64,000 bases of DNA. It comes from Escherichia coli. Lineage in GTDB: Bacteria; Pseudomonadota; Gammaproteobacteria; Enterobacterales; Enterobacteriaceae. The notes under the pieces were generated by a model. It was given only the letters and a program-made list of their open reading frames with translations, was not told the origin of the DNA and made no database searches. The stretch lies in assembly GCF_044324875.1 (NCBI RefSeq), contig NZ_CP172185.1; one strand, given 5' to 3'. Of this stretch, positions 28,442-39,495 are shown one piece after another. Position 1 is the stretch's first letter. Each line of letters starts with the position of its first letter. The position numbers and the translations under genes are program-made.

Positions 28442-31400
28442 TTACCACTGAATACCGGCACCGAGTGCGGCGGAGTATTCACCCTGGCTATTGGTACTAC
28501 CTTGTAATTTGTAGACCCAACGACCATTGGCGCTCACCATCGACACACCTAAAGCAACAGCCGATTCACCATTGTAAGTACCGCCACCAATAGAGGCCAT
28601 GCTGGCACCTGGAGTGTAAGCCTGCGGCAGACCGGTCATTGCCATTGCAGAAGCGATACCACCGCTCAACTTGCTTTCGGTTTTGGACAGTTTGTTATCC
28701 ATCTCAACCATCCGCTGATCGGTGTATTGCTTCGTTTCCTGCACGCTTTGCTTCAACTGCGCATAGTTCACTGCGTCGTTGTTGTTGACGCCAGCAGAGA
28801 CGTTGCTGATGCGAGTCGTACCGCCATTACCACCACCGAGAGTGATGTTGCTGTAGTCTATAGAACCATCAGCTTTGGTGTCGTAACGAACGCCGCCTGC
28901 CTCAGAAGACTTCAGCTGCGAAACGTTAACCGCATCGGTGGCATTAACACCTGCAGCAACGTTGGTGATACGACGCTGGTTGGTAGAAGAACCCACAGAG
29001 ATGGTGTTTTCTTCGTTGGCCACGGAACCGGTACCCAGCGCGACGCTGTTGTCAGCGGCAGCAATGGAACCAGAACCAATTGCAACACTGTCTTTACCCT
29101 GCGCGTTGGCATCTACGCCATCGGTGTTGGTCTTGAAGTATTTGGTGCTACCGGTGGTTACGATATCGCCAATGCCGTTTTCGATATTGGTAACGCGAGT
29201 ATCCAGATTCGTCACCTGATTGTTCAGGTTAGTAATGCTCTGGGTATTCTGGGAAACCTGCGCGTCCGTTACTTTCAACTGACCCACGTTAACCGCATCG
29301 GTATCAGCCGAACCAGCCGCGACGTTGGTGATCTGACGTTGACCGTCTTCACTGCCGACAGAGAACTCACCCACAGAGTTCTGCGGTGCGTCCATGTTGT
29401 AGGCGGCGTAGCCAGTTTGAGCACCACGAGTCGTCTGTGAGCCATTACCCATAGCAATGCTGTTTGCATGGTTTGCACGCGCGTTGCTACCGATAGCAAT
29501 GCCATTAAGTGCATTCGCGTCCACGTAGGCACCATAACCGATACCAATACCCGCATTACCATTAACGATAGTTTTCGCGCCCATTGCTAGCGAGTCTTCA
29601 CCTACTGCCAGTGAATCTTCTTCCGTTGAGTTGGCGTGGAAGTATTTGGTCGGCGTGGTAGCGACTGCACCAATGGCATTTTGCAACTGGCGAACCGTAA
29701 CGGCGTCATGGGCTTCGGAACCATCGGCTACGTTGATGATTTGACGATATTTACCGTCATCACCAATAGACAACGCACCAAGTAGTTCGCCATCCGTGGT
29801 GTCATAACCAATCACAACACCTTCTTCCGACACGCTGGTGTCACGAGAACCTTTAACTATTACACGGCTGGAAACGGAACTGCTACCCAGGGCGATACCC
29901 GTATCAACGGAGCTGCTGCTACCTTGACCAATGGCTACGCTGCTTTCGCCTGAGGCGACAGCGTTATAACCCACAGCCGTAGCGCCAATACCTGAAGCGC
30001 TGGCATCGTTGAACGCTAAGCCGTTGTCGTTGGTACGTACATAGTTAATGTCCGCACCGTTATCTTCGATGTAGGTTTCGCTGGTGTTACCGGCAAGCTG
30101 ATTGATGATTTCGCTGTTCTGCTGGATCAGCATATTGGTGTTAAACAGCTGAGAACCGTTGATGGCGTCAGTGCTGCCTTCGCCAATGTTACCATCAGCA
30201 ACATTTGTGATGATGCTGGCCTTGCCGTCATGGCTGGCGTTGTAGGCACCTGCGCCGTCATTGGCTGTTGCATCCCACAGCAGAGCGTTATCGTCGAGCG
30301 CATCCAGGGCGTCACCGACGTTGTTGTACTCGGCATTTGCAATGGTGTAACTCGGCGCAGTGATAGTGCCATCAGCGTTGACTTCTGCGTCACCACCCAG
30401 CGCATCAGCGATGTACTTGTTGGTGGTATACAGTTGTGAACCGTTAATGGCATCGCTGCTGGTGGAGGAAATTGCACCGTTAGCGACGTTAGTGATTACA
30501 CTGGCTGTTTTATCTTTTCCGTGAGCGGCGCTAAATGCACCATTACCATCATTGGCTGTGGCATCCCACAGCAGGGCGTCATCCAGCGTGGTATCGATCG
30601 CTTCCAGCGCGTCACCGACGTTGCTGTAACTGCCGCCAGCGATGGCATAAGTCGGTGCGGTGATTGTGCCGTCAGCATTGACTTCTGCGTCACCACCCAG
30701 AGTATCGGCAATGTACTTGCTGGTGTCATAGAGCTGTGAGCCGTTAATAGCGTCGCTGCTGGTAGAGGAAATTGCACCGTCTGCAACATTAGTAATGATG
30801 CTGGCCGTGTTATCTTTTCCGCGACCGGCGCTAAACGCACCGTCACCGCCCTTGGCGGTCGCATCCCAGAGTAGGGCGTCACCCAGTGATGTGCTAAATG
30901 ACGTGTTAATGGCAGCCAGAGCATCACCGACGTTATTGTAGTCAGTACCACCAATAGTGTAGGTTGGCCCGGTTAATACACCCGCATCACTGATATCAGC
31001 ACCACCGCCAAGGTATGACGTAAATGAATCAGCTAAGCCATAAAGTTGTGAGCCATTAATGGCGTCAGTGCTATCAGAGGATACCGTGCCTGCCAGTAAG
31101 TTGGTGATTTTGCTGTCAGTACCGTTGGTGCCGTGTTTGGCACTGAATGCACCCGCCGTAGCGTTCCACAGCAGGGAATCGTCACCGAGACTGTCAACAG
31201 CGTCAGTCAGGTTGGTGATGTTGGTGGTGTTCGTGGCGATATTGGTGGTGTTGGTTGCCACGGCATCGTTAGTGGTTTTCAGCTGAGAGCCGTTTACCGC
31301 GTCAGTGCTGCCAGCCGTCAGGTCACCGTCTTTGACGTTGGTGATTTTGCTGGTGGCTTCGGTACCGTGCGCGGCGCTGAATGCACCCGCCGTAGCGTTC

Positions 31401-33466
31401 CACAGCAGGGAATCGTCACCGAGACTGTCAACAGCGTCAGTCAGGTTGGTGATGTTGGTGGTATTCGTGGCGATATTGGTGGTGTTGGCTGCTACGGCAT
31501 CGTTAGTGGTTTTCAGCTGAGAGCCGTTTACCGCGTCAGTGCTGCCAGCCGTCAGGTCACCGTCTTTGACGTTAGTGATTTTGCTGGTGGCATCAGTACC
31601 GTGCGCGGCACTGAATGCCCCCGCAGTAGCGTTCCACAGCAGTGAATCGTCACCGAGACTGTCAACAGCGTCAGTCAGGTTGGTGATGTTAGTGGTGTTC
31701 GTGGCGATATTGGTGGTGTTGGCTGCCACGGCATCGTTAGTGGTTTTGAGCTGAGAGCCGTTAACCGCGTCGGTGCTGCCAGCCGTCAGGTCACCGTCTT
31801 TGACGTTGGTGATTTTGCTGGTGGCATCAGTACCGTGCGCGGCACTGAACGCGGTGCCATTCCACAGCAGGGCATCGTCTTTAAGGTCGTCAACGGAATC
31901 CGTCAGGGTATTGATACTGTTAGTGTTGGTGGTGATATTGGCAGTATTGGTCGCTACGTTATCGTTGGTGGTTTTCAGCTGAGAACCGTTAACCGCATCC
32001 TTACTGGTATCAGAAATAGCGCCGTCTTTAACGTTGGTGATGGTACTGGTAGTATCTGTACCATGTGCCGCACTATATGCCTTTTTAAGGGAGTCCCATT
32101 GTAACGTATTATTGTCCAGGCCCGTTAAGGCGTCGCCAACAGTGCCGAAAATACCACTTTTCAGCCTGTAATTTGGGGAAGTAACGACGCCTTGCGCATT
32201 GACGGTAGCCCCCCCACCAAGATTGTCCGCTACTGACTTACTGATAGCATAAAGCTGTGATCCATTGATGGCATCAGTACTGGTAGTGCTGATATCACCT
32301 GCTGCCATATTGACAATTTGTCGCTGAGCTGTTGTGTTACCCACAGAAACAGTATCCGCGTCAGTCGCTACAGAACCAGCACCCAGAGCAACTGAATTTT
32401 TCCCTTGAGCACTGGCTTGAGCACCAATTGCAGTGCCATTTTCTAAACCGGCATAACTGCCTTGTCCAAGAGCAATAGCATTTACACCACCTGTAATACT
32501 ACCATTACCCAGCGCGATAGCATTTGCGCCGTCAGCTTTATTCCCTTGACCGATGGCAATTGCGCCAGCCGCTACTGCCTGACTTTGATTGCCCAGAGCA
32601 ATCGTGTTGTCGACATCTGCAATACTGCCGGAGCCCAACGCGATACTATTAAGTCCATTTGCCTCCGCGTTAGTACCAACTGCCGTCGCATTTTCAGCAG
32701 CTTTGCTCTCTGCACCCATAGCAATCGCGTTTGCGGCGCTGGCGGCGGATTGTCTGCCGAATGCGAGGCTGTCTACGCCAGCTGCAGCACTGTTGCGGCC
32801 TACTGCAATCGCGTTAGCTGCAGATGCGGCGCTACTTGCACCCAGCGCCATTGCATATTCTTTCGACGCATTAGCCGTGGCTCCGAGGGCGATACTCATA
32901 ATTCCTAAGGCCTTGCTTTCACGTCCAAATGCGATGGCGTCATCAGCACCAGTCTCTGCGTAATCCCCTTGTGCAATAGAAAATTCACCTGTTGAGTTTG
33001 CATAACGACCAAGTGCGATTGAAAATCCACCCGTTGACGTTGCCGATGCACCTATAGCGAGGCTTCGCTCACCTGCTGAGGTAGTGTTAATCCCTAACGC
33101 CACTGATGCTTCGCCAAGCGAATGGGTCTTAGCGCCGAGGGCTGTTGACCACCTTCCGTCAGCAGTTGCGTGATAACCTACTGCGGTGCTGGAGCCACCC
33201 CCGGTGTCTGTAAAACTATTTGCTTTTACATCTTCACCGATAGCAACCCAGCCTGTTCCTGTTCCCTGGCCATAATTGACGCCCTGACCGTTGTCCCTTC
33301 CTGCCTGAGCCTGTACCCCAAACGACGACAACATTCCCCCAGCAACCAGAGCAGAAATTAACAGCTTACTGCGCCCGGATTTCTTGCCACGGCTCTTCGC
33401 CGTTTCGCTGGCAACGGTGTAACTGCCCGTCGCCGGATTCCAGATAACTTTAAATATTTTGTTCAT
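28442..33466 (-). CDS. Trimeric autotransporter adhesin, YadA-like (UpaG/EhaG/SadA family)
   Basis: 1674 aa; N-terminal extended signal peptide [21 protein letters not shown]; long repetitive stalk with INGSQL-type motifs; C-terminal anchor ending GIQW. Confidence 0.9.
30140..32300. repeat. Tandem intragenic repeat array in the adhesin stalk
   Basis: Roughly 300-bp degenerate units from about 30147, then three near-identical 234-bp copies (motif at 31153, 31387, 31621) and a diverged fourth. Confidence 0.85.
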
Positions 33467-33509: not shown

Positions 33510-34193
33510 TTATTTTTTGTTTTTTCGCTGCCGAGTTTCAGCAGGTTGAACAGTGTCGAACTGGAGATTGTCCATATTGATGGACAACTTCAGATACTTC
33601 AGGTTATTAGGCGAAACGCCTTTTAATGTCAGATTAATGTCTTGCCATTGGCCAGGCATTAATTGCAGAGTGGAATTCATGGTGGTGTTGAAAAGTAATT
33701 GTTGCCACTTTGCCAGAGCTTTGGCATCGGTGGGTCTTTCATTGCCCCATGTCGCATGAAAGCCAATATTTGATACGGGAACGCTTAAAAGGTTAACCAG
33801 CGAAATACGAATAACACTGCCATTTTCAACCGCATCAATAGCCAGCACCCGGCCTGCCAAACCGACCGATCCGTTATTTAAAATGAAATATTGTGTTTGT
33901 GCTGGGTTAAATTCTGTAAAGACAAATTCGTCCTGCTTGTCTTTAACCGCTTTCACCACGCCAGCGAGCGTCTTGGTACTATTTATGACAGTAGTTTGTT
34001 GTTTTTCAAAATGTTCTATCTTTCGCTTATCGAGTTCCTGCTGTTTCTCAAGCGCCTCAATTTTGCTTTTTTGCAACTCTTGCTGTGTAACGAGGTCGTC
34101 GACCTTACTCGCTTTTTCAATATAGTCACACCCTGCCAATAAGCAGAGAGGCACTATTATTAACACGCTTAACAGTGTTTTCTTTAGGTTCAT
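33510..34193 (-). CDS. Coiled-coil lipoprotein, SadB-like putative adhesin biogenesis helper
   Basis: 227 aa; signal peptide with LLAGC lipobox; Q/E/K-rich coiled-coil segment; stop 43 bp upstream of the adhesin start on the same strand. Confidence 0.65.
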   Translation of the reverse strand: MNLKKTLLSVLIIVPLCLLAGCDYIEKASKVDDLVTQQELQKSKIEALEKQQELDKRKIEHFEKQQTTVINSTKTLAGVVKAVKDKQDEFVFTEFNPAQTQYFILNNGSVGLAGRVLAIDAVENGSVIRISLVNLLSVPVSNIGFHATWGNERPTDAKALAKWQQLLFNTTMNSTLQLMPGQWQDINLTLKGVSPNNLKYLKLSINMDNLQFDTVQPAETRQRKNKK

Positions 34194-34750
34194 AGGATGA
34201 ATTCCTTTTCATAATCCCGATACAGTTGATAATTACGGCACAATCATTTTTTTATGAATGATTAGAGTGGAGCATATCCGACAAATAAATTTGTTAGAGA
34301 ATTTTTGTATTAATTGGTTGTGCGAATATGTTATTAAGTGTCAAACAATTTCGGTTTGTGGCCAATAATATTAATCGCGCGGATTTTAATGATCGGTGTC
34401 AATCAATGTCAAATGTTTCACCGGATAAAGATATAGCGGAGGGAAAGGTAAATATTCAGTTGAGTGATGTTTTATTGCGAAGTTTGCGATGCTGATAGAA
34501 AAATTTAAATAATTAATTATGTTTCAAGCATTGATATGCGGTAATTCATTGTTGATATTGATACATCATTATTTAATTTGTACCTGCTTTTCAGAATTTA
34601 GCCTGCTCCGAGCGCTCAGAAGTGTAGGTGGAGTTGAATATATAATGTTAAGAACGTTACAAATATTCGATCTCTGAAACAGGCTCCTGCATGTGCCAGC
34701 AGGAGCGAGTAAATCGTGAGTGGCTGTAATTACAGCGACGAGAAAGGAAC

Positions 34751-37392: not shown

Positions 37393-37575
<183 letters not shown>

Positions 37576-37581
37576 ATTGGA

Positions 37582-39495
37582 TTACTTACGACCTGCCAGC
37601 AGTTCCAGCACTTCATCCACGCTGGTGGTGTGTGCCAGACGCTCGATGACAGACTCATCATCCAGTGCATTGGTCAGGCTGGTGATAACCTGAATGTGCT
37701 CGTTGTTACGGGCAGCAATACCAATCACCAGACGGGCAATGTCATCTTCTTCTTCACCGAAGCGCACGCCTTCCGGGTACTGGCAGAACACCACGCCCGT
37801 TTTCAGTACGCGATCTTTCGCTTCAACCGTACCGTGCGGTACCGCGATGGACTCACCCAGATAAGTCGGGGTCAGTTTTTCACGATCCAGCATCGCCTGA
37901 ACGTATTCCGGCTCAACGTAACCGCCTTTCACCAGCTGCTCGCCAGCAAAACGAATCGCTTCTTCTTTGGTGGCCGCTTTGCGACCGAGGAAGATGTTCT
38001 CCGCGCCCAGTTTGAACAGGTTAGCACTGGAATCGTCAAAGCTGTCTTTCAGACTGTCTTTCACTTTCACTTCGTTTTCAGTATGGCGCTGGGCAGCAAC
38101 CAGACGTTCGGTCAGGCTGGTGTACAGGCCGCTGTCGAGGAAGTTGGTCAGCGAAATATGCTGTGCCTGCGGAACCTGGCGCATAGCGCGTTCGGTCAGG
38201 TCACGGTGAGTGATGACCAGGTCCACATCTGGCGGCAGGTTGTTGATCGCGCTGTTAGTAACAGAAATCTGCGACAGACCTGCATCCTGAATTTTCTTAC
38301 GCAGCACACCTGCGCCCATCGCACTGGAACCCATACCGGCATCACAGGCAACGATGATTTTACGTACGTGGCTCAGGTCGTTAGTCACATCGCCCGCAGA
38401 CAGCGGGGACGCACCTTTAGACTCAGCTTTCATGTCCTGCATACGACGAGTTGCTGCTTCAATATCATCTTCTTCTTTCACTTTGCTGGTTTTCAGCAGA
38501 ATGGCAGAGACAACGAAGGAGACAGCCATCGCCGCACACACACCCGCGATGTTAGCGAAATAAGCACCTTTTGGTGTCATCGCCAGTACAGCAAGGATAG
38601 AACCCGGAGATGCCGGAGAAACCAGACCACCGCCCAGGATAGTCAGCGTGAACACGCCAGTCATACCACCGAGGATAACGGCCAGAATCAGACGCGGATT
38701 CATCAGCACATACGGGAAGTAGATTTCGTGGATACCGCCCAGGAAGTGGATGATTGCCGCACCGCCCGCAGACTGTTTAGCGCTACCACGACCAAAGAAC
38801 ATGTACGCCAGCAGCACGCCCATACCCGGACCTGGGTTAGCTTCAATCAGGAAGAAGATGGATTTACCCAGTTCATGGGACTGCTGAATGCCCAGCGGCG
38901 AGAAGATACCGTGGTTAATGGCGTTGTTGAGGAACAGGATTTTCGCCGGTTCAACAAAGATAGACGCCAGCGGCAGCATGTCATGGACAACCATGAAGTT
39001 AACGCCCGCAGCCAGCATTTTGGACAGGGCTTCAACAATCGGGCCAATGCCGAGGAATGCCAGAATAGCGAGGATCATCCCGATGATGCCTGCGGAGAAG
39101 TTATTCACCAGCATCTCAAAACCGGATTTGATCTTACCGTCTACCCAGCGGTCGAAGTGCTTAATGCACCAGCCACCCAGCGGACCTGCAATCATAGAAC
39201 CGAGGAACATCGGCATGTCTGCGCCGACGATAACGCCCATGGTGGTAATGGCACCGACTACGCCGCCACGTTCGCCGCCTACCAGCTTACCACCGGTATA
39301 ACCGATCAGCAGCGGCAGGAGATAAGTGATCATCGGCCCGACCAGCTTCGCCAGCGTTTCGTTCGGTAACCACCCTGTTGGAATAAATAACGCGGTGATG
39401 ATACCCCACGCGATAAACGCGCCGATATTTGGCATCACCATGTTGCTGAGGAAACGACCAAAGCTTTGCACTTTGATCTTAATATCGGATGACAT
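37582..39495 (-). CDS. mtlA: PTS mannitol-specific EIICBA component
   Basis: 637 aa MSSDIKIKVQSFGRFLSNMVMPNIG matching MtlA. Confidence 0.95.
   Translation of the reverse strand: MSSDIKIKVQSFGRFLSNMVMPNIGAFIAWGIITALFIPTGWLPNETLAKLVGPMITYLLPLLIGYTGGKLVGGERGGVVGAITTMGVIVGADMPMFLGSMIAGPLGGWCIKHFDRWVDGKIKSGFEMLVNNFSAGIIGMILAILAFLGIGPIVEALSKMLAAGVNFMVVHDMLPLASIFVEPAKILFLNNAINHGIFSPLGIQQSHELGKSIFFLIEANPGPGMGVLLAYMFFGRGSAKQSAGGAAIIHFLGGIHEIYFPYVLMNPRLILAVILGGMTGVFTLTILGGGLVSPASPGSILAVLAMTPKGAYFANIAGVCAAMAVSFVVSAILLKTSKVKEEDDIEAATRRMQDMKAESKGASPLSAGDVTNDLSHVRKIIVACDAGMGSSAMGAGVLRKKIQDAGLSQISVTNSAINNLPPDVDLVITHRDLTERAMRQVPQAQHISLTNFLDSGLYTSLTERLVAAQRHTENEVKVKDSLKDSFDDSSANLFKLGAENIFLGRKAATKEEAIRFAGEQLVKGGYVEPEYVQAMLDREKLTPTYLGESIAVPHGTVEAKDRVLKTGVVFCQYPEGVRFGEEEDDIARLVIGIAARNNEHIQVITSLTNALDDESVIERLAHTTSVDEVLELLAGRK

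Follow-up and report, generated by a model that had tools for sequence, protein, structure and literature searches.

Variable number of in-frame tandem modules in the stalk of a UpaG/EhaG-family trimeric autotransporter adhesin of Escherichia coli

The 64,000-nucleotide stretch of Escherichia coli DNA analysed here (contig NZ_CP172185.1; called the window below) raises the question of whether a set of near-identical units lying head to tail in a surface adhesin gene is a true and variable feature of that gene or an accident of assembly, and of what a change in the number of units would mean for the encoded fibre. The whole array lies in one open reading frame (ORF) of 1674 amino acids (aa), on the minus strand at 28442–33466, which we assign to the UpaG/EhaG family of trimeric autotransporter adhesins. 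We propose that the array is an in-frame variable-number tandem repeat in the adhesin stalk, whose units are gained and lost by misalignment, and we consider this reading very probable. Both the gene and its types of module are already known, as is the general variation of stalk repeats in trimeric adhesins; the array is a real and ordinary feature of a known gene family, and no new kind of system is involved. The coordinates of all features are given in Table 1.

Tandem Repeats Finder detected two arrays in the window and no others, one with a period of 234 bp (3.7 copies, 90% matches, 31139–31996) and one with a period of 300 bp (2.0 copies, 80% matches, 30294–30886). A repeat search placed copies at 31128–31384, 31362–31618 and 31596–31852 (95% and 94% identical to the reference copy) and a further copy of 67% identity at 31824–32080, with a spacing of 228. 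After segmentation of the protein, three units, U1 to U3, follow each other head to tail from 31109 to 31813 with 91–94% DNA identity; over 234 nucleotides, U1 and U2 differ at 13 positions, U1 and U3 at 22, and U2 and U3 at 18, and the U1 and U2 proteins share 77 of 78 residues. Identity at a lag of 234 is 0.93, compared with 0.33 ± 0.02 (maximum 0.395) over 1000 codon shuffles, and the periodicity is therefore far beyond chance. The initial annotation, made from the sequence of the window, had described almost identical 234-bp units in tandem, flanked by more diverged ones. This description holds, with units of 234, 234 and 237 bp, with 'almost identical' meaning 91–94% at the DNA level, and with one 228-bp unit (U0) and three units of about 300 bp (V1 to V3) as the flanking units; the interval given, 30140–32300, encloses the entire array with a small margin.

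Each unit opens with a YadA_stalk/neck match in Pfam. The stretch that begins at the end of one unit's coiled coil and includes [19 protein letters not shown] and ITNVKDG...DAVNGSQL aligns with the SadA structures 2ynz (E 1e-15), 2yo2 and 3zmf, and with AtaA fragments; in a review, 2ynz is given as the reference structure for the DALL alpha-to-beta connector (PMC7247746). Together, the stalk/neck matches and the SadA alignments show that one 234-bp unit is a complete module composed of a short neck (ITNVKDG...DAVNGSQL), a coiled coil of about four heptads whose core layers contain asparagine ([21 protein letters not shown]), and a DALL connector (GDDSLLW...AFSAAHG). In other alleles, units of 71 and 69 aa occur (the 71-aa form in UpaG of strain Nissle) that lack exactly one IATNTTN heptad. 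The presence or absence of this heptad, 21 bp within the 234-bp unit, is a second and finer level of stalk-length variation.

The number of units differs among related strains. Twenty alleles from complete E. coli genomes, designated by L numbers, were segmented at the neck motif; that of strain ST648 (L012) is frameshifted and not segmentable. The count of 78/79-aa units is zero in L006, one in L004 and L017, two in L005 and L014, three in the window and in L001, L003, L008, L011 and L013, four in L016 and six in L007; other alleles carry a 69-aa unit together with one (L010), two (L009), three (L002) or four (L015) such units. The V units (104, 100 and 95 aa), which are about 80% identical to each other in DNA, are always three, and the rest of the protein has the same layout in every allele examined, those of UpaG and EhaG included. 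When a single unit was used as query, 963 of 5426 complete genomes carried it in 1–8 detectable copies (median 4), in a search that undercounts diverged alleles and in which the figure of eight comes from the search summary alone. Fibre length thus varies among related strains by whole units. All array indels observed are multiples of three, with units of 207–237 bp, and the ORFs stay intact; a phase-variable locus of the simple-sequence contingency type was rejected, because every change is in frame.

The most informative alleles are those that differ in the array and hardly anywhere else. Pairwise differences were read from global MAFFT alignments, as the out-of-register placement of units by local megablast made its identity values misleading. 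The four-unit allele of AR_0006 (L016) and the three-unit allele of WCHEC4533 (L003) show no mismatch and one exact 234-bp indel, and the same is true of WCHEC4533 and the two-unit allele of TOE51 (L005); this series of two, three and four units is otherwise free of differences over about 8.8 kb. Similarly, strains 144 and 54214 (L015 and L004) show no mismatch and a single indel of 909 bp. The 2-kb flanks on either side, compared directly, are identical or differ by one base. In addition, unit 2 of TOE51 joins parts of units 2 and 3 of WCHEC4533 in a clean chimera (pattern aaaaaaaaabbbbbbbbb), with a single switch between unit nucleotides 122 and 155, and this junction is the footprint expected of in-register misalignment. 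The comparison of copy number among isolates that the initial annotation had proposed therefore found length polymorphism rather than one number in all isolates, and its suggestion that the array expands and contracts is supported by the range of zero to six units in complete genomes, by the two/three/four series and by the single-switch chimera.

The same differences could in principle come from assembly, by collapse or mis-joining of near-identical units, and this could perhaps apply also to the three units of the window. The in-register deletion of a unit in L005, with its chimeric unit, is exactly what collapse gives, most of the contigs that carry the exact window protein are drafts of 20–200 kb, and four rather than three is the commonest detectable count among close alleles; SC418, the closest allele in a complete genome (21 mismatches), has one extra unit of 207 bp. 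Nevertheless, the longest exact repeat in the window array is 86 bp, which is shorter than ordinary reads and large assembly k-mers, and the identical protein is found on 86 contigs, in the interior of draft contigs of about 72 kb. L004 and L017, which were assembled independently and come from different countries, have the same one-unit allele (no difference over 8557 bp), other short variants also recur across several genomes, the reading frame is kept in all variants, and the 76-78-78-78/79 architecture is present in independent complete genomes as well. We consider it very unlikely that assembly artefacts account for the differences in copy number, and the warning in the initial annotation that the copy number of the window might be false through collapse is not borne out. 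Judged without reads from the source strain, the concern is weak for the window allele; it would be more serious for upaG of the CFT073 type because the units of that gene are 98% identical, and copy numbers taken from draft assemblies need checking above all for such alleles.

Misalignment of units, the reading that we favour, would proceed as follows. Because neighbouring units are 91–94% identical, they could pair in register one unit out of place, and whole units would be added or removed, either by RecA-dependent unequal exchange between sister chromosomes or by RecA-independent replication slippage, two routes that sequence cannot tell apart. Since the length of the unit is divisible by three and the unit appears to be a self-contained trimer module, each event would add one module to the fibre or take one away and leave it intact and able to fold; the change per unit may amount to several nanometres, a rough figure that follows from coiled-coil geometry. 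Two other observations bear on the history of the array. Units are 92–94% identical within window-type alleles and 98% within Nissle UpaG, compared with 83–85% between the two lineages, and this excess of likeness within lineages is concerted evolution, in which units are homogenised within each lineage. The constancy of the V units agrees with a mechanism that depends on extended tracts of highly similar sequence: at about 80% identity, these units would not be expected to change in copy number.

Several points weigh against gain and loss by misalignment, or limit its reach. No allele examined contains a pair of DNA-identical units; the copies are thus not fresh duplications, and the absolute rate of turnover may be low. 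Some gains and losses could be the import of whole alleles through recombination between strains, and the gene is indeed mosaic: the first 1.1 kb or so of the window gene is on a different haplotype from its closest match, SC418, with 18 of the 21 mismatches confined to this part (32405–33455; gene nucleotides 12–1062). Because the same variable columns also separate L001 from L006, head haplotypes have been reshuffled against stalk and anchor haplotypes by recombination between strains. A collapsed assembly also yields an in-register deletion and a chimeric unit, and single genomes are not proof when taken alone. Finally, as regards consequences for the cell, a review states that a mouse bladder model revealed no significant effect of deleting upaG (PMC12525524).

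By analogy with other adhesins, fibre length may set how far the head projects past lipopolysaccharide or capsule, and may in this way affect adhesion, aggregation or immune exposure. The competing explanation accepts the variation in copy number but holds it to be selectively neutral: repeated DNA in a gene that is rarely expressed would generate it as a by-product, and adhesin function would not be tuned by it; we regard this as a possibility to be taken seriously, although we do not think it probable. In its favour, upaG is derepressed by deletion of hns, and a CFT073 mutant has no significant colonisation defect, according to a review table (PMC12525524); the adhesin gene is frameshifted, or the sadB-like gene a pseudogene, in some strains, which suggests that selection has been relaxed in part of E. 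coli. On the other hand, 12 of the 13 differences between U1 and U2 are synonymous, and in the window units synonymous divergence (pS) is 0.08–0.21 while nonsynonymous divergence (pN) is 0–0.007, with pN/pS near zero, which means that purifying selection on the protein sequence of the unit is strong; moreover, the observed variants are all in-frame, whole modules. Cha, a trimeric autotransporter of Haemophilus cryptic genospecies, has a repeat unit much shorter than that of E. coli. In Cha the number of tandem peptide repeats modulates adhesive activity, and the length of YadA matches the injectisome needle, so that in other trimeric adhesins repeat number alters adhesion or must match surface structures (both cited in PMC9704523).

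A more far-reaching proposal would make the UpaG-family stalk the trimeric counterpart of the 'periscope' adhesins. Periscope Proteins are surface-anchored rods of highly similar tandem repeats whose number varies between close strains and changes the projection of a distal adhesive domain; the class is made of monomeric, single-chain rods of independently folding domains, and trimeric autotransporters are explicitly excluded from it, with the remark that a similar function is possible (PMC9704523). The window adhesin resembles this class in that the number of repeats varies between close strains, as in the two/three/four series, and differs from it in being a trimeric autotransporter rather than a monomeric rod. 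Modules would then be gained and lost faster than point mutations accumulate, since alleles identical over about 8.8 kb differ only in unit number, and unit number would be under diversifying selection, with head projection matched to the thickness of O-antigen or capsule or serving antibody evasion. We put this forward tentatively and find it rather unlikely in this full form. The alleles with zero to six units form a natural series that lends itself to the question of whether adhesion is tuned by fibre length. Module-wise variation of the stalk also means that gene length, protein size and the results of polymerase chain reaction or typing assays differ between close relatives, and that the dosage of repeat-region epitopes varies, in adhesins that are discussed as vaccine and anti-adhesion targets.

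The assignment of the gene to its family comes from its domains and its position. In Pfam the ORF matches the extended signal peptide region (ESPR), many YadA_head repeats, at least 14 YadA_stalk repeats and a C-terminal YadA_anchor, an architecture that identifies it as a trimeric autotransporter adhesin and that agrees with the proposal of the initial annotation that the array lies in an adhesin stalk. A C-terminal beta-barrel anchor of the YadA type (PF03895, E 2.5e-19), together with a signal peptide and a passenger of head, neck and coiled-coil stalk modules, is what characterises type Vc secretion, and homology to the solved trimeric fragments of SadA and AtaA suggests that the protein forms a homotrimer on the outer membrane. 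Megablast against the 5426 complete E. coli genomes placed the gene at the UpaG/EhaG locus, in the order lldP, adhesin, DUF3251 (sadB-like) gene, yibL, yibT and mtlR, where the annotated upaG of Nissle and ehaG occupy the same position. The sadB-like lipoprotein gene lies immediately upstream of the adhesin gene in the same orientation, and the two apparently form one operon. As in UpaG, EhaG and SadA, the passenger has DALL connectors, FGG-type inserts and the HANS motif in the order known from these proteins; YFHANS occurs in the translation. Because chromosomal position, partner gene, order of domains and matches to solved structures all agree, we place the gene in the UpaG/EhaG/SadA group, on sequence grounds. 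According to reviews, UpaG and EhaG bind extracellular matrix proteins and promote aggregation and biofilm formation (PMC12525524).

Within this group, UpaG (uropathogenic E. coli CFT073/Nissle, 1778 aa) and EhaG (enterohaemorrhagic E. coli) share with the window allele the locus, the partner gene, the overall architecture, the three units of about 100 aa and the conserved C-terminal half, and Nissle UpaG and EhaG are collinear with it unit by unit. The same 78-aa module occurs three times in Nissle UpaG, together with two 71-aa units, twice in UTI89 and once in the EhaG allele examined. In contrast, the window gene is only about 80–86% identical to annotated upaG and ehaG in DNA, its units form a separate homogenised set, 83–85% identical to those of UpaG, and the number of units and U0 differ; the exact 1674-aa protein is present in NCBI under several accessions with no other RefSeq name than 'YadA-like family protein'. 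SadA of Salmonella provides the structural matches, the junction of coiled coil, DALL connector and neck aligning with 2ynz, 2yo2 and 3zmf and the FGG-type units with 2yo2 and 2yny, and SadB (4c47) matches the gene upstream (E 1.3e-70); SadA itself belongs to another species and is another allele. Variation by modules is also seen in BadA of Bartonella henselae, a trimeric autotransporter whose isolates differ by multiplication, deletion or recombination of neck/stalk modules, giving 18 to 34 domains, and in which earlier sequencing had missed repeats (PMC8859334). BadA is much longer, however, its domains fall into many classes, and pseudogenes on its flanks act as sequence donors, whereas the E. 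coli array is short (0–6 units counted directly, up to 8 inferred) and lies in a simple two-gene locus.

Table 1. Features of the adhesin locus in the window (positions of the 64,000-nucleotide stretch)
Feature	Position	Strand	Basis
Trimeric autotransporter adhesin gene, UpaG/EhaG-locus allele	28442–33466	-	ORF; Pfam; locus between lldP and sadB-like gene; exact protein in NCBI
Extended signal peptide region, aa 1–48	33323–33466	-	Pfam ESPR PF13018, E 1e-15
N-terminal YadA-like head repeats, aa ~90–377	32336–33199	-	Multiple PF05658 matches
U0, diverged stalk unit, 228 bp / 76 aa	31814–32041	-	Segmentation; 67% to reference copy; found in window-type alleles
U1, neck, coiled coil and DALL connector, 234 bp / 78 aa	31580–31813	-	YadA_stalk aa 551–594; aligns with SadA 2ynz, E 1e-15
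U2, 234 bp / 78 aa	31346–31579	-	13 nucleotides different from U1 (12 synonymous); 100% identical to a unit of SC418
U3, 237 bp / 79 aa, last ~10 residues divergent	31109–31345	-	Segmentation
21-bp (one heptad) sub-repeat	31213–31252 (in U3); second copy 31681–31720 (in U1)	-	Tandem Repeats Finder, period 21, 1.9 copies
V1, 312 bp / 104 aa	30797–31108	-	Segmentation
V2, 300 bp / 100 aa	30497–30796	-	Segmentation
V3, 285 bp / 95 aa	30212–30496	-	Segmentation
V1–V3, ~100-aa units with FGG-type insert	30212–31108	-	Match SadA 2yo2/2yny and AtaA 3wpa
C-terminal YadA-type membrane anchor, aa 1614–1674	28445–28627	-	PF03895, E 2.5e-19
Terminator-like hairpin just past adhesin stop codon	28389–28418	-	13-bp stem, then T-run; consensus scan only
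sadB-like (DUF3251) lipoprotein gene, 227 aa, upstream of adhesin	33510–34193	-	PDB 4c47, E 1.3e-70; DUF3251 annotation in all related loci
Promoter-like site upstream of sadB-like gene	34383–34412	-	11/12 consensus match; consensus scan only
Antisense ORF, 71 aa	31305–31520	+	ORF list
Antisense ORF, 71 aa	31539–31754	+	ORF list
Antisense ORF, 69 aa	31773–31982	+	ORF list
Antisense ORF, 170 aa	31133–31645	+	ORF list

The initial annotation had also pointed to small plus-strand ORFs that recur with the period of the array, and these are present (71, 71 and 69 aa, at a spacing of 234). That these ORFs and the longer one of 170 aa are genuine antisense genes is something we practically discount, even though they are open and recur every 234 bp, and even though in one antisense frame 10 of the 13 differences between U1 and U2 are also synonymous. 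That frame shares its third codon positions with the adhesin frame; the excess of synonymous changes is thus a matter of geometry and no evidence of coding, and the test is uninformative there. The 170-aa ORF matches no NCBIfam family, and a 71-aa ORF has a single sub-threshold NCBIfam match (15.8 bits against a cut-off of 38). All of these ORFs lie wholly inside a gene that has strong domain and structure support on the opposite strand, and their ends are set by a stop that occurs once per unit, as expected when a repeated sequence casts a shadow on its other strand; they are shadows of the repeat.

Other observations concern the same locus. Near the N-terminus of the mature protein, an in-frame GGAACA hexanucleotide repeat (region 33255–33272, gene nucleotides ~199–216) is present in two copies in the window, L001, L002 and L006 and in three copies in L003, L005 and L016, the extra copy adding a Gly-Thr pair; its copy number is the sole difference along the gene between EBJ003 and WCHEC4533. 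In Z226-7 and UTI89 (L011, 7063–7746; L020, 7858–8541) the annotation gives the sadB-like gene an internal stop and classes it as a pseudogene, with an intact adhesin gene beside it, whereas in the complete genome of ST648 both genes, adhesin and sadB-like, carry the annotation of a frameshifted pseudogene (L012, 2001–6552). An Rfam scan of the whole 64-kb window gave no match. Elsewhere in the window, a 628-aa plus-strand ORF (37483–39369) is almost fully antisense to a 637-aa minus-strand ORF (37582–39495); the latter corresponds in position to mtlA of the related annotated locus, and the plus-strand ORF is probably its shadow.

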